Of a stretch of 64,000 nt of DNA, positions 2,104-48,056 are shown one piece after another. Made by a program: the position numbers and the translations under genes. The DNA comes from a virus. Taxonomy: Duplodnaviria > Caudoviricetes. The notes below the pieces were generated by a model. That model worked only from the letters and a program-made list of their open reading frames with translations, ran no database searches and had not been told where the DNA came from. Position 1 is the first letter of the stretch; every line of letters begins with the position of its first letter. Location: positions 1 through 64,000 of IMG/VR virus record IMGVR_UViG_3300036762_000065. One strand, written 5' to 3'.

Positions 2104-3081
2104 ATGTCAGATTTTCAAGATGCTAGGCAAACAATATACGAGGAGCTGTCGAAACTGAGATTAAATCAGTTGGTACAAGGCGACTCCTATATGATCCAAT
2201 GTCCATTTCATGATGACAGTACTCCGTCATGCGGCATTAACATAGCTCTAGGAACAGATATACCACTAGGGTTTTTCCATTGTTTTGGATGCGGAACGAA
2301 GGGCGGTTGGAATAAAATAGCTGCCAAGCTGAATTTAAAACAGATTAAAGAATGGCAAACCTTCGAAGGTGAAGGAACTAAGAAACGTCACAATAAAAGA
2401 GATTTGTTAGGCACAACAAATAATAGTATTACAAGACTGCTTGATGAGATAGGAACTAAGCAAGCTATAGACTGGCCGGTATACATGGAGTGGAGAGGAT
2501 ATAAAGGAGATATAATTCGCAAACTTGGAGGTTTGTACTTCAACGATTATTTAACCGACGAACTTATGTTAGTGTTCCCTGTATATATAAACAAGCGATT
2601 TAAAGGAGGTGTTCGTGCATACTTAGAAAAACAAGTAACAGGAACTAGCTACATTACAACAAAAGGTCGCTGGGCTAAAAGTTACGGTCTATTAGGCTAT
2701 GAGTATGTCAAACGAATAATGCGTAAGTATAACTATAAGTCTATAGTTCTTGTTGAAGGACCGAGAGATTTCTTAAGGCTTGTCACTAACAACATACCCG
2801 CACTAGCTATATTAGGGACATTAAATTTCGATGAACGTAAACTACTGTATATAATGAATATGGTAAGTGACTTGGAGACAATTTATGTATTGTCTGATAA
2901 TGACGCTGCAGGAAAGAAAATGTATGGGAATATAAAAAAGACGGCAGCTAACTCAATAAACGTAAGGCGAATAAAACTGCCTAGAAATAAAGACAAGAAA
3001 GGACGTTTAATAAAGATGGATCCTGACAGTGCCCCACAAGATTTAATAGACGCCATAAAAGAAATAGTAGAATCTAACTAG
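2104..3081 (+). CDS. DNA primase (CHC2 zinc finger + TOPRIM)
   Basis: CPFHDD...FHCFGC zinc finger; VEGPRD and SDND TOPRIM motifs. Confidence 0.9.
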   Translation: MSDFQDARQTIYEELSKLRLNQLVQGDSYMIQCPFHDDSTPSCGINIALGTDIPLGFFHCFGCGTKGGWNKIAAKLNLKQIKEWQTFEGEGTKKRHNKRDLLGTTNNSITRLLDEIGTKQAIDWPVYMEWRGYKGDIIRKLGGLYFNDYLTDELMLVFPVYINKRFKGGVRAYLEKQVTGTSYITTKGRWAKSYGLLGYEYVKRIMRKYNYKSIVLVEGPRDFLRLVTNNIPALAILGTLNFDERKLLYIMNMVSDLETIYVLSDNDAAGKKMYGNIKKTAANSINVRRIKLPRNKDKKGRLIKMDPDSAPQDLIDAIKEIVESN

Positions 3082-5180: not shown

Positions 5181-5750
5181 TTACAGTTTTGGACTCTCCA
5201 AAAAGTGGTTCAAGAAAGATTGTTCTCTTTTGTATGTATTAACATTGGCAAAATAAGGCAGATTGTATAAGGCGCACAGTCTATATATACCCATAAGACT
5301 ACAATCAAGCTCATGAACTTGTTTTGGTCTTAGGCTTTTTTTAGTAGAAGCCATTGCGTCTTTTAAATCGTTATAAAGATCATTTAGGTCTAAACTGCTA
5401 TTGTACCTATTTTTCCACGTAGAGGCAGTTAAAAAAGTAACGTCCAAATCATTAAACTCGTTTAGCAGTATTCCCAACATTAGGTTTATACACTCAACAG
5501 TTTTACCTTTTATTCCTCTTGTTTGATACCTCTCTGCAACAATGTGTGTAAAATTATACTTGTTGTGGAGTTCTACTATCTCATTACAGAATGCGTTGGC
5601 TTGTTCTTGTGCCTTTAGAACGTTATTGATAGTGCTTATCATCTTAGTGCCGACGACATTAACAACCAACTTTCCGTCAATCACTTTAGCACGTAGTATA
5701 GAGGCTGCAAAATTAACAGAGCCTGGGTCTAAAGAAAGTATTGTTATCAC
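5181..5750 (-). CDS. RuvC-like Holliday junction resolvase
   Basis: LSLDPGSVN, AERYQ, TWK and HELDC motifs of the RNase H fold. Confidence 0.8.
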   Translation of the reverse strand: MITILSLDPGSVNFAASILRAKVIDGKLVVNVVGTKMISTINNVLKAQEQANAFCNEIVELHNKYNFTHIVAERYQTRGIKGKTVECINLMLGILLNEFNDLDVTFLTASTWKNRYNSSLDLNDLYNDLKDAMASTKKSLRPKQVHELDCSLMGIYRLCALYNLPYFANVNTYKREQSFLNHFLESPKL

Positions 5751-5846
5751 TATTTTTGCCTTTAATTACTGTGTAAAAATAAATTAGAATACAGAGGTTC
5801 AATATTGCTAATTTATAATTATCTATTTACATTATCAGGAATAGTT

Positions 5847-6974
5847 ATGAGTAGAGTAACGAGAGGACCTGCGACTATTAAGAGGACTCATGCCAAAAAC
5901 TACATACAGAGAGAAGCCCAAAAGCGGCTGAACGAAACTGTGGCCCCTTTTAATACACAAACACACAACGCACTGGCTGTAAATGCGGTCGAAGTAGACT
6001 TGTATCAAATACAAGACAGGACAGGATACCCTTGTTCTTGTGAAAAAACAGAACACTTGCCCCAATACGAAAACATACCCAATTCTAACGTACCTCCTGT
6101 AGTACCTACGCAAAATAACGACAGTTCCGAAGGCGTTAAAATAAGATTGAAAGATAACGACCTATTCGGAGATAGTCGTGCAGAGCATATAATGGATGCT
6201 TTGGAATTCGATGTTAGCGGAGAAGATCATCCTTTCACATCGAATGATAAAACGTCAAAAGAGCCTGAAGGTAACGTAGATTATGAAGACGGTTTATTTC
6301 TAGGCAACAACATACAATGCGGCATATGCTATAGAGCAGGATTTCAGCCAGGCTATAAAGCGTGGGGGAAACAACGCCATGTACTTACTCACAAAGATAT
6401 AGAAACCGCTGTTGATTATTGGGTGGACACAACAAAATCACCGCACATCATACGTAAACAAGTACAAACAACGAAACCCTTTGTTGAATTTAAAATAATG
6501 GTACCTAAGTACTTCTCTCATTTAGTGTTTAGTGTTAGAAACAATGAGAAGCTTATCCAAGGGGAAAAGCTCTATGATGAATTTAACGAACAATTAACTC
6601 TAGGCCATTTTAAGACACATGCAGGTCAAGTTATAACAGTGCGAACACGCGCTAAAGAATTCACACATGTGGTAGTAGAATTTGACTTAGGCAACCAAAA
6701 ACTGGTTGCTAATATAGGAGGAGAATCGCAAACACTGGATTACAGTATGTTGGAAACAATAGGCAACATGTCCGTAGTGTTGCCTCCTTCTGTAAACGAG
6801 ATTAAATCTAATGACGTACTTATTATAAAGAAAAGGAGACTCGCATTAAAAATAATCGACAAGGAGCGTAAGATAACTAGCGACCAACGTAGATTAGAGT
6901 GGATGGTTCAAACTAGAGTACTTCAACCTACCGAAGCATTAAAATACATAGCCGAAGGGTTTAAATTGTTATAA
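5847..6974 (+). CDS. Probable virion neck/head-completion protein
   Basis: ATG at 5847 with AGGA SD; CSC...CGICYRAGFQPGY motif seen in myovirus head-closure proteins; weak functional call. Confidence 0.45.
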   Translation: MSRVTRGPATIKRTHAKNYIQREAQKRLNETVAPFNTQTHNALAVNAVEVDLYQIQDRTGYPCSCEKTEHLPQYENIPNSNVPPVVPTQNNDSSEGVKIRLKDNDLFGDSRAEHIMDALEFDVSGEDHPFTSNDKTSKEPEGNVDYEDGLFLGNNIQCGICYRAGFQPGYKAWGKQRHVLTHKDIETAVDYWVDTTKSPHIIRKQVQTTKPFVEFKIMVPKYFSHLVFSVRNNEKLIQGEKLYDEFNEQLTLGHFKTHAGQVITVRTRAKEFTHVVVEFDLGNQKLVANIGGESQTLDYSMLETIGNMSVVLPPSVNEIKSNDVLIIKKRRLALKIIDKERKITSDQRRLEWMVQTRVLQPTEALKYIAEGFKLL

Positions 6975-6983
6975 GGAACTGTT

Positions 6984-7682
6984 ATGAATGAATTAGAAAG
7001 AGATATGGTTATAGCTAGAAACATGATGGCCGTAGCACGTAGATCACGTAAAGGGAAAAGCGCCAATATACGTAGTAAGATGCTTAAAATGATAATGCCT
7101 CATTTAAGTAGAGATACAGGAGACAGGCTTGCAGACGCTATAAGTAAAAACGACAGTAGTGAATTTTCTACTGTTTGGGATAAAATAAAACATGAAATAA
7201 GTGACAAATTAGGTAAGGGAAAGCACAGTGCAAATGCTTCTGCGGAAGTAGAAGGAGCAGTAACGCCTATAACAATAGATATATTAAAACAGTATGTAAC
7301 AGATTCGACTTCTGGAAATCTCACCGACTTTCTCACAGAGCTAGGAGAAAGTGTTGCAAGTGAAATGGAGAGTACTTCTACGGATTACGATTACCATGAT
7401 TACGGTAATGTTTTGCTAGGTAAAGGAAACAATGTAAAAACTAGAGAATTTGTTGCCAACGGCTCTTGTCAGATAGAAGGCAAAGAAGGTACACTTACTT
7501 TACTCACTACAAGCATAAAAGTATTGACCAATACAGACCTGCTAAAAAACATTGAATTAGAAGTAACTGCACAGCTATTGGACGTAAATAAAGTAGTTGT
7601 GAGAACATACAGAGAACGAGGTTGCATGGCAGTGGCCGCAACTGAAATCATATTAAAAGCGTTATCTTTAGCTAGATTATGA
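6984..7682 (+). CDS. Hypothetical protein
   Basis: 232-aa ORF with AAGGA SD. Confidence 0.8.
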   Translation: MNELERDMVIARNMMAVARRSRKGKSANIRSKMLKMIMPHLSRDTGDRLADAISKNDSSEFSTVWDKIKHEISDKLGKGKHSANASAEVEGAVTPITIDILKQYVTDSTSGNLTDFLTELGESVASEMESTSTDYDYHDYGNVLLGKGNNVKTREFVANGSCQIEGKEGTLTLLTTSIKVLTNTDLLKNIELEVTAQLLDVNKVVVRTYRERGCMAVAATEIILKALSLARL

Positions 7683-7683
7683 T

Positions 7684-8004
7684 ATGGAAATCTTGTTTGT
7701 ACTCATACTAATAGGAAATAATGGAACCTTTGAACAATTTGAGTACCCTGTAACTTCTTGGGAAGCTTGTTTAGAGAGCATACAGTTTACTCGAGGTGTT
7801 AATTTAAACACTGTAATTAAAGATAGAGTACCTAATATAAACAACGATGCCGGAGAGTATAGGGCAGTAGTGTTTTGCACTAGAAACGGTGAGGTTTATG
7901 AAGATATATACGAAGATGAAGAGGATTACTTAAGCAAGAATAGCGAGAATGATGCGGATTTTAACGATACTTTAAAAAACATACGTAATTCATTAGATTA
8001 TTAA
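7684..8004 (+). CDS. Hypothetical protein
   Basis: 106 aa, hydrophobic N-terminus, followed by a terminator. Confidence 0.7.
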   Translation: MEILFVLILIGNNGTFEQFEYPVTSWEACLESIQFTRGVNLNTVIKDRVPNINNDAGEYRAVVFCTRNGEVYEDIYEDEEDYLSKNSENDADFNDTLKNIRNSLDY

Positions 8005-8029
8005 GTCGGACTTGTTCCGACTTTTTTTT
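8003..8029 (+). terminator. Rho-independent terminator
   Basis: AAGTCGGA-CTTGT-TCCGACTT followed by a T-run. Confidence 0.85.
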
Positions 8030-8607
8030 GTTTCAAAATAACGTTAAACAGTGCTATTTTTGAAGTTATTGGGTAGTTTTTAGGTATATATCAAAAAGTT
8101 ATAAGCATTTCTTCCAACCTGTCGTTGAGGGTTTTACGGTTTTAGCCAAGTTTTAATTAAAACTTGTAAAAAACTATATAAACAACAATATTCCATACCT
8201 TTTTTGTTGTTTTATGTTCAGGGAAACCGAGCTATTTTCTATGCCTTTTTGATGTTTTTAAATAAAACAGGTTAAATCCAAAAAAAAGCAGCTCCAAGTT
8301 ATTGATTTATAATGTATATAACAAAAAAGTCTAACAAAAACGCCTAAAATCGAAAACCAATAGTGTAAAGTCTCTTTATCTTTTAAATGATTACATTTAG
8401 ATATGACTCATAGAGTCTCCTAAGAAAAAATAAAATAAAGCCGTGCGAAGCACTCCATTAAAGTAATATAAATTGTTTTTGTAATCAGACAGTAAAAAAG
8501 AGTATAGTAAATTGTAAAACAGGATAACCCTAACCTAATTTTTTAAGTTCTTCCAAGAATTAGTCTTACTACTTTCATTCTTACAGTAGTATTGGACTAC
8601 AAACAAT

Positions 8608-8655
8608 GTTTAGGAGTTTAGGAGTTTAGGAGTTTAGGAGTTTAGGAGTTTAGGA
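8608..8655. repeat. Six tandem copies of the 8-bp unit GTTTAGGA (iteron-like)
   Basis: Read directly; lies in the longest non-coding region of the window. Confidence 0.95.
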
Positions 8656-8656
8656 C

Positions 8657-8731
8657 TGTGGTCCTTCGGACCACACGTGCTTCGCACGGTTTTAATCTTT
8701 TCTTACCTACGGTACGGTTTCCTTCGGAAAC
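8657..8731 (-). other. Cluster of four short hairpins with C-GNA-G triloops on the - strand (candidate origin or ssDNA signal)
   Basis: + strand reads TGTGGTCC-TTC-GGACCACA, CGTGC-TTC-GCACG, TACC-TAC-GGTA and GTTTCC-TTC-GGAAAC. Confidence 0.6.
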
Positions 8732-8839
8732 AGGACATCTATGAACTAATGTTCCCAGCACTTTATTATGCGACTTTTTGTCGCATTTTTTATGCAAAAA
8801 TAAACTGTAAATTCTCTCTTAAACAGAGAGTGTTTTATT

Positions 8840-9019
8840 ATGATGAAAAAATTTATAGAATGGCTAGAGCGTTATTTTATGGCAGATATTTCTGAATACG
8901 AAGAATGTCCATATTGCACAAACGTTGAATTTGTAAGTTTCTGTTGCCACTGTTCAGGTAGCGGTTACGTTAGAATAGCAAACCAAGAGGAGATTGAAAA
9001 TGACACAACGCATGACTAA
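8840..9019 (+). CDS. Small zinc-finger protein (59 aa, below the ORF-track cutoff)
   Basis: MMKKFIEWLERYF...CPYC...CCHCSGSGYV; preceded by TGTAAATT and a GAGAG SD-like sequence. Confidence 0.65.
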   Translation: MMKKFIEWLERYFMADISEYEECPYCTNVEFVSFCCHCSGSGYVRIANQEEIENDTTHD

Positions 9020-9611
9020 AGGTGCTTCTACAGTAAAGGACTTAGCTAAAGCTAGTGCTGACTACAACCCGCGAACAATCACAGAAAGAGAACTAAACGG
9101 ACTTAAACATTCGTATGATACGTTTGGGGATTTGAGCGGTATCGTGTTGAACATACGTACAGGTACTCTTGTATCTGGACACCAGCGCATAAAAACACTT
9201 AAAGGAAAGAAAAGTCGTATTGAAAAACATCCGCACACAGATAGCTACGGTACGGTTGCCACAGGCTGGGTTGAATACAAATCTGCTAACGCTGACCATA
9301 TATCAAAGATTCCCTATCGTGAGGTAGACTGGTCTGACGGTAAAATGGAAAAAGCAGCTAACATTGCTGCTAATGCTCATGGAGGGCAATTTGATAAAGA
9401 CAAGCTCGGTGCTTTACTAGAAGAACTAGAGGATGCAACGTTCGATATAGAACTAACAGGACTAGACCCTTTAACCCTGCGTAGCCTTAGAACGGCCAAA
9501 TCTGAAGGCGATAGTGTTGATCGTGAAGAAAAGCACGAAGGCTTCAAAGAATACGATGAAAACAGTTTTGAACTTGATAATTGTTGTCCACGTTGTAAAT
9601 ATAAGTGGTAG
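9000..9611 (+). CDS. ParB/Srx-like domain protein with C-terminal Zn ribbon
   Basis: ADYNPR...LVSGHQR ParB-N motifs; terminal CPRCKYKW; GAGGAG SD before ATG 9000. Confidence 0.85.
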   Translation: MTQRMTKGASTVKDLAKASADYNPRTITERELNGLKHSYDTFGDLSGIVLNIRTGTLVSGHQRIKTLKGKKSRIEKHPHTDSYGTVATGWVEYKSANADHISKIPYREVDWSDGKMEKAANIAANAHGGQFDKDKLGALLEELEDATFDIELTGLDPLTLRSLRTAKSEGDSVDREEKHEGFKEYDENSFELDNCCPRCKYKW

Positions 9612-9614
9612 ATT

Positions 9615-11912
9615 ATGTCTAAATTAATAGAGTACAATAGCACTGAAATAAAAGCAGGTACTGGTGTTGCACGTAATCATTGTGCAATAGCAGAGCCTCT
9701 TGTTGGCGGGAAGTCTTTAGTTCCTTCAATGGAGCGTATTAACAAAAAGAAAAAAGACTTCACTGCAATGAGTTTTTTTGCAGGCTGCGGTGGTGCGTCT
9801 ATCGGAATGAAGATGGCAGGCTTTAATGTATTATACGCGAACGAGTTTATTCCTGCTGCGCAAGATACGTATAGACTAAATCATCCAGATACACTACTCG
9901 ATCCTCGTGATATACGAAAAGTGTGTCCTAAGAAACTGTTGAAAAAGCTTGGACTTAAGCGTGGAGAATTAGACCATCTCGATTTAAGTCCTCCTTGTTT
10001 TGCACCAGGTACAATGATACACACAAATCATGGATTTAAACGCATAGAAGATGTTGTTATAGGAGATAATGTTCTTACTCATACACAGGAGTTTCATCCT
10101 GTGTATGATACAATGGTTCGTAACTACTCAGGCCGCATGTATCGTCTAAAAACTATGGGCTCTATGACAACAGAGGTTACACCAGAGCACCCTTACTATG
10201 TGCGAAGAAAGAAAGGTATAAATAAATACTCATTAGATAAACCTATATGGGTAGAAGCGCAAAATCTACAGAGAGGTGATTATGTTGGTATAGCTGTAAA
10301 TCAGCTAAATGATAACAATCCTTGGTGTGGATTCTCAGACATACGAGAAAAAAGACCAGAACTTCGTGCATATAGATACAAATGGAAAAGTACTCACGTT
10401 GTATATAGGGAGTTAAATGCTTTGCCTATACATCTTAACGATTTTTGGTGGGTAGTAGGCAGATTTGTCGGAGATGGTTGGATAACACATAAAGATCAAC
10501 CAGAACATAGAAATCCAAGGAAACGTGTTAAGAGATTCGTTCGTATTTGTTGCGATAAAACAGACGGTGGAGTAGAACTTCGCGCTATAACAAGTCGATT
10601 GGACGCTTGTAATTTCTCCTATAAAATTTTGGAACGTAGAACGGCATATAGAATCTCTTTATTGAAATCCAGAGAGCTATGTGAATTTCTTTTGCAATTT
10701 GGACAAGGCGCTAAGAATAAGAGAATTCCAGGTTCAGTCCTCTCTATGCCTAAGAGTCTGCTATTGCGATTTATACAAGGTTATATATCTGCTGATGGTA
10801 GTCGACGTGGGTACGGTAAATTCAGATTCAATACTGTCAGTAGGGAATTAGCTATAGGCATAGTACACTGCATCAATAAAGTTTTTGGAAAATCTAGTGG
10901 GAAGATAGGATGTATATCGTCTGAAAAATTGATCAAATATGGATGCGGTGTAATAGAAGGTAGAAAAGTAAACGTATCCGATCGTTACGGTGCTTCATTT
11001 AACTTATTCTCCGATCCAGCGCGCGAACAGTTTATACAAGAAGAGGCTAATGGCATAATATGGGTTCCAGTACGCTCTATTGAGGAATTTCAATATAAAG
11101 GACGTGTATACAATATGTCTGTTGAGAACGATGAAACATACACGGCAAACAATTTAATTGTTCATAACTGTAAAGGCTTTTCTACAGCAGGTGTGCAAGA
11201 AGACGGTTGGAATAAAGAAGTAATGTATTCTGATGGTGTTTATCAACGAGTAGATGATTTGTTTGGTGAAGGCGTCAGGATGTTGATAGGACTAAAACCA
11301 AAAACGTTTCTTGCTGAAAATGTTGCTGGCCTTATCAAAGGTAGTTCGCGCGGTATGTTTATCGAAACACTTAACGATTTTAAAGCATGTGGCTATCGCG
11401 TTAAAGCAGCATTGATCGACCCTGTTGTGTTAGGAGCTCCACAGACGCGGGAGCGTATGATATTTATAGGAGTACGTAATGATCTAAAGATGGACCCTGT
11501 ATTTCCTACGTTGAAAAAACGCACTCCTGTTCGTGTTACTGATGTACTTCCGCATATACGTCTGATAAAAACAAAAGTTCGCAATATGCTAACATATGTT
11601 CCTGCAACAAGACCCAGCCCTACAATAGTAGCCTCAGATTTTGATACAGGGGAGAACGCTAGTTTTTCTTGTGGAGGTTGGTGCGAAGACGACCTAGGAC
11701 GTAGACGTAAATACAATCTATCTGAATTACGCAGATTGATGTGCTTTCCAGACGACTTCAAACTTAGCGGTACCCCTCGCCAACAGTGGGAAAGACTAGG
11801 TAGAAGTCATTTACCTCTTCAAGTATACCACTTAACAAAAGCTGTCCGCACAAACATACTAGAAGTTTACTACGACAGCAAAGGCGCGGATTATTCAGAC
11901 ACAATTAAATGA
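9615..11912 (+). CDS. DNA cytosine-C5 methyltransferase-family enzyme (probable carboxymethyltransferase), intein-containing
   Basis: Motif I FFAGCGG, IV PP|CKGFS, VI ENV, VIII QTRER, IX ELRRLMCFPDDF, and X LGRS in place of the usual GNS/GNA. Confidence 0.93.
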   Translation: MSKLIEYNSTEIKAGTGVARNHCAIAEPLVGGKSLVPSMERINKKKKDFTAMSFFAGCGGASIGMKMAGFNVLYANEFIPAAQDTYRLNHPDTLLDPRDIRKVCPKKLLKKLGLKRGELDHLDLSPPCFAPGTMIHTNHGFKRIEDVVIGDNVLTHTQEFHPVYDTMVRNYSGRMYRLKTMGSMTTEVTPEHPYYVRRKKGINKYSLDKPIWVEAQNLQRGDYVGIAVNQLNDNNPWCGFSDIREKRPELRAYRYKWKSTHVVYRELNALPIHLNDFWWVVGRFVGDGWITHKDQPEHRNPRKRVKRFVRICCDKTDGGVELRAITSRLDACNFSYKILERRTAYRISLLKSRELCEFLLQFGQGAKNKRIPGSVLSMPKSLLLRFIQGYISADGSRRGYGKFRFNTVSRELAIGIVHCINKVFGKSSGKIGCISSEKLIKYGCGVIEGRKVNVSDRYGASFNLFSDPAREQFIQEEANGIIWVPVRSIEEFQYKGRVYNMSVENDETYTANNLIVHNCKGFSTAGVQEDGWNKEVMYSDGVYQRVDDLFGEGVRMLIGLKPKTFLAENVAGLIKGSSRGMFIETLNDFKACGYRVKAALIDPVVLGAPQTRERMIFIGVRNDLKMDPVFPTLKKRTPVRVTDVLPHIRLIKTKVRNMLTYVPATRPSPTIVASDFDTGENASFSCGGWCEDDLGRRRKYNLSELRRLMCFPDDFKLSGTPRQQWERLGRSHLPLQVYHLTKAVRTNILEVYYDSKGADYSDTIK
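9996..11168 (+). mobile_element. Intein (391 aa) with LAGLIDADG homing endonuclease
   Basis: Begins CFAPGT; block B TPEHP; GRFVGDG and GYISADG LAGLIDADG motifs; ends VYNMSV...VHN|C. Confidence 0.95.
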
Positions 11913-13948: not shown

Positions 13949-14053
13949 ATGAAAAATTATGAGCCAGAAATGACTTCTAAGTTCGATGAGCCAGAAGAGC
14001 CAGAAATGACTTCTAAGTTCGATGAGCCAGAAGAGCCAGAAGTTGTTGCCTAG
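13949..14053 (+). CDS. 34-aa acidic repeat peptide MKNY(EPEMTSKFDEPE)2EPEVVA
   Basis: AAGAGG SD, its own promoter-like motif and terminator; 36-bp direct repeat at 13961-14032. Confidence 0.7.
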   Translation: MKNYEPEMTSKFDEPEEPEMTSKFDEPEEPEVVA

Positions 14054-26642: not shown

Positions 26643-27644
26643 ATGGCTGTTTCTAAAAAAACAACCGCCGCAAAACCGGCAGCCAGTAAAGGTGCTAAGG
26701 TTAAAAAGGTCACTTCTGTAACCCAGAAGACTAACAAAGTAAAACTGGACATGAGTCCTGAAGCCGTTAAAGCAAGAAAAGAGGCTAAACTAGAGAGAAA
26801 AAAGCCGGCCGCTAAGGCAGCCGCTAAGCTTGCAAACAAGAAAAAAAGAGCTACTATGACGCCTGCTGAAAAGAAAAAAGAAGCAGAACGTAACGTTGTT
26901 CTTCGTGCTCGCCGTACAGGTAAGGACGAGAAGCAAGCTCTAGCCGACTTCAGAGCTAAGAAATCAGGTAAGCCCACTACAGCAGCTAAGAACCGTGCTC
27001 AACGTGTGGCTATTCGTAAGGCACATGCGGCAAAACGTGCAGGGTTTACAGAAGCACGTAAAAAAATTGCTGATGCTTATAAGGCAGCGCGTGAAAAGGT
27101 AAAAACACTGCCTGTTGAGAAACGCCGTGCGGCAAACGCAGCTTTGAAAACAAAGTATGTTAATGCAAAGCAAGCACTAGCTAAAAAACGTGAAGCGGCA
27201 GCGGCAGCGGCAAAAACTAAAGCAGCTAAGTATGCACGAACAGCACGTTCGTCTAAAGCTCCTGCTCCTGTTAAAGCCGCACCTACTACTGTAGCGAGAA
27301 AAGCTCGGACTCCTAAGGCAGCTCCAGCCGCAGCTCCTGCTGCGAAAGCTCCAAGAAAAGCTCGGACTCCTAAGGCAGCCGCAGCTCCTGCTGCGAAAGC
27401 TCCAAGAAAGGCCCGGACTCCTAAGGCAGCTCCTGCTGCTCCGGCAGCTAAAGCCCCAAGAAAGGCCCGGACTCCTAAGGCAGCTCCTGCTGCTCCGGCA
27501 GCTAAAGCCCCAAGAAAGGCCCGGACTCCTAAGGCAGCTCCTGCTGCTCCTGCTGCGAAAGCTCCAAGAAAAGCTCGGACTCCTAAGGCTGCTCCAGCCG
27601 CAGCTCCTGCTGCGAAAGTAGCAAGACGCGGCGCAAAAAAGTAA
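26643..27644 (+). CDS. Histone H1-like basic nucleic-acid-binding protein
   Basis: Extremely K/A/R/P-rich; about six KAPRKARTPKAAPAAPAA repeats; GGAG SD; followed by a terminator. Confidence 0.8.
   Translation: MAVSKKTTAAKPAASKGAKVKKVTSVTQKTNKVKLDMSPEAVKARKEAKLERKKPAAKAAAKLANKKKRATMTPAEKKKEAERNVVLRARRTGKDEKQALADFRAKKSGKPTTAAKNRAQRVAIRKAHAAKRAGFTEARKKIADAYKAAREKVKTLPVEKRRAANAALKTKYVNAKQALAKKREAAAAAAKTKAAKYARTARSSKAPAPVKAAPTTVARKARTPKAAPAAAPAAKAPRKARTPKAAAAPAAKAPRKARTPKAAPAAPAAKAPRKARTPKAAPAAPAAKAPRKARTPKAAPAAPAAKAPRKARTPKAAPAAAPAAKVARRGAKK
27295..27618 (+). repeat. About six tandem ~54-bp coding repeats (K-A-R-T-P-K-A core)
   Basis: Invariant CGGACTCCTAAGGC core in each unit. Confidence 0.9.
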
Positions 27645-47990: not shown

Positions 47991-48006
47991 GTTTCTATAG
48001 CAAAAC

Positions 48007-48032
48007 TGTAAATATGTTATATGTTATATGTT
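48007..48032 (+). promoter_or_regulatory. TGTAAATA motif plus (ATATGTT)x3 upstream of the DNA polymerase
   Basis: AAAACTGTAAATATGTTATATGTTATATGTT. Confidence 0.6.
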
Positions 48033-48056
48033 ATATATAGTTAAGGAAGCCTTATA

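Follow-up and report, generated by a model that had tools for sequence, protein, structure and literature searches.

A Hairpin-Rich Non-Coding Element Shared in Design by PaBG/Lu11-Like Jumbo Phages: Candidate Replication Element or Structured RNA

The Locus and Its Genomic Setting

We analysed the first 64 kb (positions 1 to 64,000; hereafter the window) of IMG/VR virus record IMGVR_UViG_3300036762_000065, a circularly assembled phage genome of 241,706 bp with a GC content of 39%. The subject of this work is a structured non-coding element of 432 nt at positions 8362-8793. It lies in a gap that an earlier reading of the letters (the sequence-only reading) had described as the longest non-coding stretch of the window and as AT-rich. 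Both statements were confirmed: the gap, at 8005-8839, is the longest stretch free of open reading frames (ORFs) in the whole genome, and the GC fraction of 8030-8839 is 0.307, compared to 0.390 genome-wide. The feature is unique in its genome, and its design appears conserved across a clade of jumbo phages. Because the design recurs in related phages at the corresponding position, this comparison of sequences points to a functional element. Two roles are weighed below, a single-stranded DNA element for priming or origin function, which we tentatively favour, and a structured RNA.

The proteins encoded in the window place the phage, by similarity, among the PaBG/Lu11 ('Lupandier') jumbo phages. 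The phrog_21298 marker protein (5805-6974) shows 48% identity to that of PaBG and 42% to that of Lu11. The genes left of 5750 lie mostly on the - strand and include a Holliday-junction resolvase and a Cas4/RecB-like nuclease; a gene for a DnaG-type primase (2104-3081) stands among them on the + strand. Gene orientation flips at 5750/5805, and the + strand genes from 5805 onward comprise a ParB-like/methylase module and genes for a clamp loader, SbcC, a 1998-aa helicase and a DNA polymerase. The element is thereby surrounded by primase, resolvase, nuclease, clamp loader, SbcC, helicase and polymerase genes, and the window ORFs of at least 800 aa encode the helicase, the DNA polymerase and SbcC. 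No tRNA or tmRNA was found in the 64-kb window. The cumulative GC skew is lowest at 4-6 kb and highest at 124 kb, two points separated by half a genome, and the element is situated about 3 kb from both the strand switch and the skew minimum.

At the left edge of the gap, an intrinsic terminator of the upstream gene (7684-8004) was recognised on the + strand at 8003-8030, with an 8-bp stem followed by a T run. It is followed by an AT-rich spacer (8031-8361; GC 0.275) that contains no hairpins of the special type described below and might serve as an unwinding region. Two small ORFs within the gap (8642-8797 on the - strand and 8677-8895 on the + strand), as well as an ATG-led proline-rich frame in the related locus L029, were rejected as genes, as the frame is not conserved between relatives.

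Hairpins, Repeats and Inverted-Repeat Symmetry

The structured part opens with the palindrome TAAATG-ATTA-CATTTA (8384-8399) and the hairpin GACTC-ATA-GAGTC (8405-8417); a palindrome of similar kind, TTCAAATGATTTGAA, is found in the gaps of Lu11-like phages. Next comes the left arm of an inverted repeat (8421-8453, + strand), composed of a purine-rich tract and the sequence CCGTGCGAAGCAC. Within this arm the mini-hairpin GTGC-GAA-GCAC (8443-8453) carries a GNA loop (N, any nucleotide) on the + strand. Further to the right, an exact head-to-tail array, (GTTTAGGA)x6, occupies 8608-8655 of the + strand with 100% matches and is followed by four hairpins, whose - strand loops read GAA, GAA, GTA and GAA, each closed by a C:G pair. 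Hairpin 1 (8657-8675; TGTGGTCC-TTC-GGACCACA on the + strand) has an 8-bp stem and a CCGAAGG core on the - strand, and the same core is found in hairpin 4 (8717-8731; GTTTCC-TTC-GGAAAC on the + strand), with a stem of 6 bp. Hairpin 2 (8676-8688; CGTGC-TTC-GCACG on the + strand) reads GCGAAGC on the - strand, and hairpin 3 (8704-8714; TACC-TAC-GGTA on the + strand) supplies the GTA loop. The sequence-only reading had listed the array, these four hairpins, the oppositely oriented GTGC-GAA-GCAC and the palindromes at 8405-8417 and 8768-8786, and all of them were found exactly where it had placed them.

The number of such hairpins is far above expectation. In the whole genome, 22 perfect hairpins of the C-GNA-G or C-TNC-G type with a stem of at least 4 were counted, five of them in a 289-bp part of the gap, where 0.026 would be expected (Poisson, 1e-10). 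The C-TTC-G hairpins with a stem of at least 5 number three in the genome, and all three are in this gap. The hairpin cluster also folds much better than shuffled sequences on both strands, as DNA (z = -4.6 and -5.0) as well as RNA (z = -5.2 and -4.8). The observation is real and far above chance.

A feature that the sequence-only reading did not see is the inverted repeat itself. Segments 8421-8453 and 8677-8709 are complementary at 79% over 33 nt, with a perfect core (13/13), and the score of the repeat was reached by none of 300 shuffles. Its right arm (8676-8709, - strand) consists of hairpin 2 and a tract that is pyrimidine-rich on the + strand, so that a purine-rich tract stands opposite a pyrimidine-rich one. 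The GTGC-GAA-GCAC at 8443 is the core of this repeat rather than a stray hairpin. Between the arms lies a centre of 223 bp, which holds a weak match to a sigma-70-like promoter (TTGTAA-18-TATAGT, 8479-8508, + strand), the sequences TAAAACAGG and CCCTAACCTAAT (8515-8539, + strand; a second copy of the former is at 8263-8275), a long imperfect hairpin of 13 base pairs (8561-8599) and the six 8-mers. Sigma-70-like sites were fewer than in shuffled sequences, so the match at 8479-8508 alone carries no evidence. The mismatches between arms showed no G:U excess (10 GT, 12 AC and 17 other). This wobble test, in which G:T is compared to A:C, was given little weight because its positive control failed: terminator-like control hairpins, which act as RNA, gave 10 GT and 9 AC, and the test is thus uninformative.

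The 8-bp units had been called iterons. The perfect array without spacers is there, but the term is an interpretation, since the array may also stem from recent slippage, which perhaps multiplied a functional word. Readings of the AGGAG array as a CsrA/RsmA sponge or an anti-Shine-Dalgarno sequence, and of TTAGG as a telomere repeat, were tried and dropped, as no supporting feature was found.

Loops of the GNA type are a motif of DNA mini-hairpins and lend RNA far less stability, r(GCGAAAGC) having a melting temperature of 39 °C (PMC13037366). The motif is known from the complementary-strand origin of G4, from ssiA of RSF1010 (CCGAAGG) and from N4 promoters (PMC13037366). The sequence-only reading had accordingly offered hairpin promoters for an N4-type virion RNA polymerase as one possibility, and the geometry fits, with stems of 5-8 bp and 3-nt loops closed by C:G (PMC13037366). 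Such a role is nevertheless very improbable. No T7/N4-like RNA polymerase was found (the search for a PF00940-type polymerase gave no match, and the control genomes cannot validate this search), the largest window ORFs encode a helicase and a DNA polymerase, and the PaBG genome paper reports only sigma factors for the PaBG group. Moreover, the central base of the loops is A or T, not G, and four hairpins within 75 bp are too many for each to start a transcript of its own.

Transcription Signals around the Element

The middle/late promoter word of the phage, A[C/G]TGTAAA(T), was derived from 47 gene-proximal sites in this genome, and the Lu11 annotation lists the same word as a promoter. A copy, AGTGTAAAG, is present on the + strand at 8362-8370, just before the first palindromes, and is a candidate promoter into the element. 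At the other end, the palindrome ATGCGAC-TTTTT-GTCGCAT (8768-8786) scores as an intrinsic terminator; with its T run (8768-8793, + strand) it would end a + strand transcript of the element. This terminator is situated between AGTGTAAAG and a canonical promoter word, ACTGTAAAT (8804-8812), which is followed by a leader hairpin (8814-8830) ahead of the ATG at 8840; the promoter word and leader hairpin in 8804-8839 (+ strand) belong to the downstream genes, outside the element. Judged by these motifs, 8362-8793 is bracketed like a + strand transcription unit with a putative promoter and a putative terminator. In PaBG-like phages, L014 and L049, the word A[C/G]TGTCAA stands just ahead of the first hairpin.

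This arrangement is what would be expected of a new structured non-coding RNA gene without a role in replication. Its transcript of about 330-430 nt would start from 8362-8370 on the + strand and end at 8676-8700 or at 8768-8793. Pairing of the arms would close the fold, with the small hairpins as side branches, and the six UUUAGGAG units, GGA-rich and Shine-Dalgarno-like, would provide a single-stranded platform for a protein or the ribosome. We regard such an RNA as a close second to the origin reading and as a serious possibility. The sequence-only reading had mentioned a structured + strand RNA as an alternative, and the case for it is now stronger than was assumed there: a promoter word and a terminator bracket the element, and Lu11-like relatives have a promoter just ahead of a covarying element (described below). 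In addition, all neighbouring genes are on the + strand as well, the + strand folds with z = -4.6 to -5.2, and the word A[C/G]TGTCAA precedes the first hairpin in the relatives named above. On the other hand, folding of the - strand is no worse, and minimum free energies compared over 18 loci favour neither strand. The stems are nearly pure Watson-Crick with no G:U excess, a comparison that lacks power, and C:G-closed triloops are not specially stable in RNA (PMC13037366). Nor was a match to Rfam 15, whose families include GOLLD, ROOL, 6S and riboswitches, obtained, with nothing at gathering scores in the window and noise only up to E = 10 for our element, L029 and PaBG.

The terminator-like sites also admit a simpler explanation, namely an ordinary regulatory spacer made of terminators, promoters, operator palindromes and a slippage microsatellite, in which the hairpins merely stabilise or terminate transcripts and have no collective function. 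Four terminator-like sites were counted on the + strand in 7600-9200, compared to 0.7 expected. On the + strand, hairpin 2 together with its T-rich tail gives a weak terminator score, its equivalents in PaBG, L015, L028 and L014 resemble weak terminators likewise, and a perfect 8-bp array is what recent slippage would leave. We consider this explanation unlikely in view of the comparison with relatives, described below.

Conservation of Place and Design in Related Phages

The same gene order was found in PaBG, Lu11, HRDY3, NCTB and Yoloswag, as well as in 26 IMG/VR loci and 24 metagenome loci: a resolvase (- strand), phrog_21298 (+ strand), one to four small genes, a terminator and a gap of 0.5-1.5 kb without an annotated gene. 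In all groups, phrog_21298 and phrog_31583-like genes and a terminator precede the element. Homology across all subgroups extends to the gene immediately before the gap (6984-7682 in our phage) and not to the genes behind it; a ParB-like/methylase module follows the gap here and an unrelated 268-aa family in PaBG-like phages. The downstream families of the Lu11-like (A4) and PaBG-like (A5) phages are not detectably related to each other either (hhalign probability 0.1%). The gap region is not discussed in the PaBG genome paper.

In nearly all loci of the PaBG/Lu11 clade the gap carries a cluster of special hairpins with quite different stems, and such a cluster occupies the syntenic position in about 25 PaBG/Lu11-like jumbo phages. 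In 23 related loci, 63 of the 117 perfect hairpins inside the element (54%) are of the C-[G..A]-G type on either strand, compared to 13 of 475 (2.7%) in the remaining 262 kb of the same loci, and the density of special loops is about 110-fold higher inside than outside. The polarity of the loops recurs too. In our phage, PaBG, L014, L028, L045, L049 and L057, the left-hand loops have the G..A sense on the + strand and the right-hand loops on the - strand; the Lu11-like group has the same order plus one further + strand hairpin at the far right. There, hairpin A has - strand loops GCA, GAA, GCAA or GCGA, and hairpin B has GTA, GTTA or GATA. Nested long-range inverted repeats were detected in L014 (three), L049 (four), L015 and L045, and their sequences cannot be aligned between phages. 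The arms thus appear to stay complementary within each genome while diverging between genomes.

An ordinary regulatory spacer leaves these regularities unexplained: the 110-fold enrichment of special loops on both strands in more than 20 divergent phages, the inverted repeats within genomes despite the divergence, and the uniqueness of the cluster in 242 kb. They bear on the RNA reading in two ways. GNRA tetraloops replace GNA triloops in some relatives, a point in favour of RNA; about a third of the special loops have the G..A sense on the other strand, which an RNA would explain only for mutually pairing arms.

Some records break at this place. Two independent metagenomic contigs, L030 (end 9745) and L019 (end 9553), both stop inside the C-rich tail of the Lu11-like element, and the NCTB record is linearised inside the equivalent gap (L010 end), ending in a poly-A run. 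These breaks may reflect difficulty of assembly at the structure or may hint at a physical discontinuity. They are the one observation that would suit a packaging or genome-end signal, which the sequence-only reading had also named. We found nothing else in its support and hold it to be as improbable as the N4-type promoters: our contig ends elsewhere, in a coding tandem repeat, and no terminase-linked evidence was found. The repeat in question, a 15-bp unit (CCTTCTTCATCACCA) in 8.5 copies, is present at both contig ends (1-127 and 241,580-241,706) inside a - strand coding region, and the 'direct terminal repeat' of the record is probably a circular-assembly overlap within this coding repeat rather than a physical end.

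Extent of Sequence Homology and Covariation

What is conserved, as far as alignment can tell, is the same place and the same design, together with one partial homologue. This is L057, an AT-rich metagenomic contig in which the right arm alone is clearly homologous: GTGGTC..GACCAC is followed by CCGTGCTTCGCACGG and a pyrimidine-rich tail, as in our element. The stem GTGGTC/GACCAC of hairpin 1 is common to both, and hairpin 2 is identical. Shorter resemblances extend further. The 12-mer TTACCTACGGTA of hairpin 3 is identical in HRDY3, L029 and L030, and PaBG has GCC-TAC-GGC at the equivalent place; CCCTAACCTAAT resembles CCCAACCTAAT, found upstream of the promoter in Lu11, HRDY3 and L029.

The perfect 8-mer array is unique to our phage. 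Its unit is similar to a block that the Lu11-like element conserves as a single copy, CTTTTAAGGA(T/G)AG; in RNA form, CUUUUAAGGA(U/G)AG, this similarity also suits a structured RNA. TTAGG/CCTAA words cluster in the gaps of Lu11, L027, L031 and L049 as well, and TTAGGATTAATTC occurs twice in the L049 gap. L049, a relative of 260 kb and 38% GC, has the closest counterpart of the TTAGGA array: the centre of its mirrored element (7443-7495) contains TTAGGATTAATTCTT twice, 34 bp apart, and its left arm contains three CCTAAT words.

Searches at the sequence level were otherwise negative. An exact search of IMG/VR for three repeat units gave one match, in an unrelated coding region and judged to be chance; blastn in 'distant' mode with 7600-9700 against 50,697 phage records gave none. 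The ParB-like neighbour as a synteny probe revealed no relatives, and metagenome contigs probed with the phrog_21298 protein contained no close ones. A profile search with phrog_21298 reached 24 distant loci, whose marker proteins are all at about 50% identity or less.

In the Lu11-like subgroup, an element of about 430 nt, which aligns well, begins behind a CTGTAAA promoter and has a C-rich tail at its end. The canonical CTGTAAA promoter lies 20-40 nt ahead of it in 13 Lu11-like loci. Double changes are seen at 20 of the 25 pairs in its 3' domain, among them pairs of a helix that surrounds a further hairpin; the observed values were not attained in any of 500 shuffles, and slid controls were 6-fold lower. 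A promoter followed directly by nested, covarying helices is an argument for an RNA gene, of which our element would be the AT-rich counterpart. A covariance model of the Lu11-like 3' domain (R1) found 13 Lu11-like loci (E = 9e-35 to about 1) and missed our element and the PaBG-like ones; with filters off it returned single hairpins only, at E = 0.12 or worse. Our element was not found with nhmmer profiles (A2, A9, single gaps) either. RNAalifold was applied to three PaBG-like sequences, too few to judge long-range pairs.

In Lu11-like loci the element is always followed by a gene of family A4, which has a weak profile match (E = 0.046) to an RNA-guided nuclease chain (PDB 9yyg). The element might encode an RNA that guides or partners a nuclease-dead, TnpB-like protein. 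For our phage this idea is close to refuted by the missing partner gene and is very unlikely: no A4 homologue and no TnpB zinc-ribbon domain was found in the genome (A4 genome search; hmmsearch --max of all ORFs; PF07282), and the neighbouring proteins gave no such Pfam or PHROG match. The mirrored type of element is therefore seen here with no TnpB-like gene beside it. Downstream genes also differ between subgroups, and only the upstream neighbour is conserved. Members of the A4 family (L029:9639-10586, Lu11 L023:9572-10957 and homologues) have no Pfam match.

A Candidate Element for Initiation on Both Strands

We tentatively favour, short of an even chance, the reading of about 8362-8793 as a conserved fold-back module that acts as single-stranded DNA, a candidate priming or origin element with a logic like that of ssiA/ssiB in RSF1010. 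Transcription from the word at 8362-8370, or a protein bound to the TTAGGA array, would open the AT-rich duplex. The arms would then expose C:G-closed G-N-A mini-hairpins, the left one (8443-8453) on the + strand and the four right ones (8657-8731) on the - strand. Such hairpins, being very stable as DNA and presumably bound poorly by single-stranded DNA-binding protein (SSB), could serve as entry points for the primase (2104-3081) on each strand. A + strand primer at the left would be extended leftward and a - strand primer at the right rightward, and the divergent leading strands would run with the two arms of gene orientation and GC skew in the genome.

The structures, their uniqueness in the genome, their inverted-repeat symmetry and their recurrence in relatives are observed. 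Several findings argue for the origin. Five of the 22 special hairpins of the genome are crowded into 289 bp of its longest ORF-free stretch; their loop chemistry is that of DNA mini-hairpins known from priming and initiation sites; the G..A sense is carried on both strands across relatives; and the arms are mirror images in a context of replication genes. We know of no use of U..C loops in a single + strand RNA. The bidirectional origin or primase-loading site proposed in the sequence-only reading has gained from the inverted-repeat arms, the recurring loop polarity and the replication-gene region. It has gained nothing firm from the GC-skew check that was suggested with it: the minimum is indeed about 3 kb from the element, but the skew cannot alone locate an origin because it follows gene orientation (flip at 5750/5805).

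Besides the skew, the following points weigh against an origin. No RepB'-type primase (PF16793) and no recognisable initiator gene was found in the genome. The promoter word and terminator bracket on the + strand, and the covarying Lu11-like structure right after its promoter, are as expected for RNA. Nested covarying helices over 400-700 nt exceed the known needs of a double-stranded DNA origin, and the wobble test is powerless to separate RNA from DNA. Conservation was partly borne out: the hairpin cluster, its place and its design recur, but our copy as a whole cannot be aligned to the relatives by covariance model or nhmmer, and the 8-bp array, perfect and without a counterpart in them, may be a slippage product, not iterons.

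A broader proposal is possible but rather doubtful. PaBG/Lu11-like jumbo phages might share a hitherto undescribed replication start, in which a fold-back element of several hundred bp extrudes G-N-A-capped mini-hairpins on opposite strands from its two arms, once transcribed from a phage promoter, and each arm recruits the DnaG-type primase to begin a leading strand, with the TTAGGA words as candidate initiator sites in our phage. With similar doubt, this shared start would follow an RSF1010-like 'leading-strand-only' logic that evolved independently in viruses of 240-310 kb. To judge by the literature searched, this group of jumbo phages has no mapped replication origin.

The locus is a sharply defined origin candidate, and it recurs in the cultured phages PaBG, Lu11 and HRDY3. 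As an origin, it would carry the biology of DNA mini-hairpins beyond IncQ plasmids and small phages with single-stranded DNA into giant viruses with double-stranded DNA. As an RNA, it would represent a large new family with loops that imitate those hairpins. In both cases a conserved gene block borders on a variable accessory block at the element, which can serve as an annotation landmark for the clade.

Other Features of the Window

Downstream of the gap, a ParB-like domain protein (8994-9611) precedes a C5 cytosine methyltransferase gene (9615-11912) that is split by an intein, with Hint and intein-splicing domains and a weak LAGLIDADG match; PHROGs also ties this ParB-like protein to methyltransferases. 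The phrog_21298 protein is conserved in PaBG, Lu11 and the Erwinia and Dickeya jumbo phages and has invariant CxC and CGxC motifs in its N-terminal half. Its structure, modelled from an alignment of 22 sequences, had a predicted local distance difference test (pLDDT) score of 66, with low confidence in that half and a confident, beta-rich C-terminal half. The model gave only weak matches, to neck/head-tail proteins and carbohydrate-binding modules (CBM), with no nucleic-acid enzyme fold and no RuvC; as far as such a model can tell, it has no bearing on the role of the element.

Other tandem repeats were noted. The promoter word ACTGTAAAT followed by (ATATGTT)x3.6, another short perfect tandem array near a promoter, is present at 48005-48036, just ahead of the DNA polymerase gene. 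A 54-bp unit in 5.9 copies (27297-27618) forms an Ala/Pro/Lys-rich coding repeat in a + strand ORF, with a local GC of 0.47, and a perfect 36-bp unit in 2.2 copies (13961-14041) lies inside another + strand ORF.

Comparison with Known Systems

Some replication origins are activated by transcription, exemplified by T4 oriF/oriG, the T7 primary origin and ColE1 RNA II. They have in common with our locus, where the promoter is a candidate, a phage promoter just upstream of an easily opened, structured region and a neighbourhood of replication genes; they have no mirrored arms with mini-hairpins.

As a hairpin-rich non-coding phage element of several hundred nucleotides behind a putative phage promoter, the element resembles large structured phage RNAs (GOLLD, ROOL) and the uncatalogued Lu11-like element. 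The latter, with its covarying helices in Lu11-like relatives, shares the syntenic position and the hairpin type. In contrast, our element matched no Rfam family by covariance model, the Lu11-like model misses our copy, and both strands of our copy bear triloops of the DNA mini-hairpin type instead of mainly GNRA tetraloops on a single strand.

The early promoters of N4 have stems of 5-7 bp and 3-nt G-N-A loops closed by C:G, and can be extruded from supercoiled DNA, which is similar to the hairpins described here. Unlike in N4, no N4-like polymerase gene was found, the loop centre is A/T and not G, and the hairpins are clustered on both strands instead of standing one per transcription unit.

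A closer parallel is the complementary-strand origin of G4, St-1 and alpha3, where a hairpin cluster with SSB-resistant GCG(N)NAGC mini-hairpins is used by a DnaG-type primase (PMC13037366). There the signal is on one strand and naturally single-stranded, as these are single-stranded DNA phages; here the DNA is double-stranded and both strands carry it.

The system closest in design is the oriV of the IncQ plasmids RSF1010/R1162. The RSF1010 oriV consists of iterons and two 40-nt inverted-repeat priming signals on complementary strands (PMC8567376). There are clear differences. The genome studied here has no RepB'-type primase and encodes a DnaG-type one instead, and no RepA/RepC homologues were identified, no separate search for them having been made. 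Its six contiguous 8-bp repeats, with AT-rich flanks and absent from relatives, lie between the arms, whereas the iterons of RSF1010, which its initiator RepC binds next to an AT-rich stretch, are about 20 bp long and lie beside the signals. The hairpins are divided four to one between the right and left arms, the replicon is a phage of 242 kb, and there is no sequence similarity. The resemblance is therefore one of design, not homology. In both systems direct repeats adjoin two hairpin-forming signals that are mutual inverted repeats, one per strand, and here the two arms, 79% complementary over 33 nt, each carry a mini-hairpin. The CCGAAGG mini-hairpin of ssiA (PMC13037366) is present twice on the - strand of the element, next to one GCGAAGC. 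The logic of RSF1010, one leading-strand start per strand (PMC8567376, PMC13037366), is the logic that we propose for the element.

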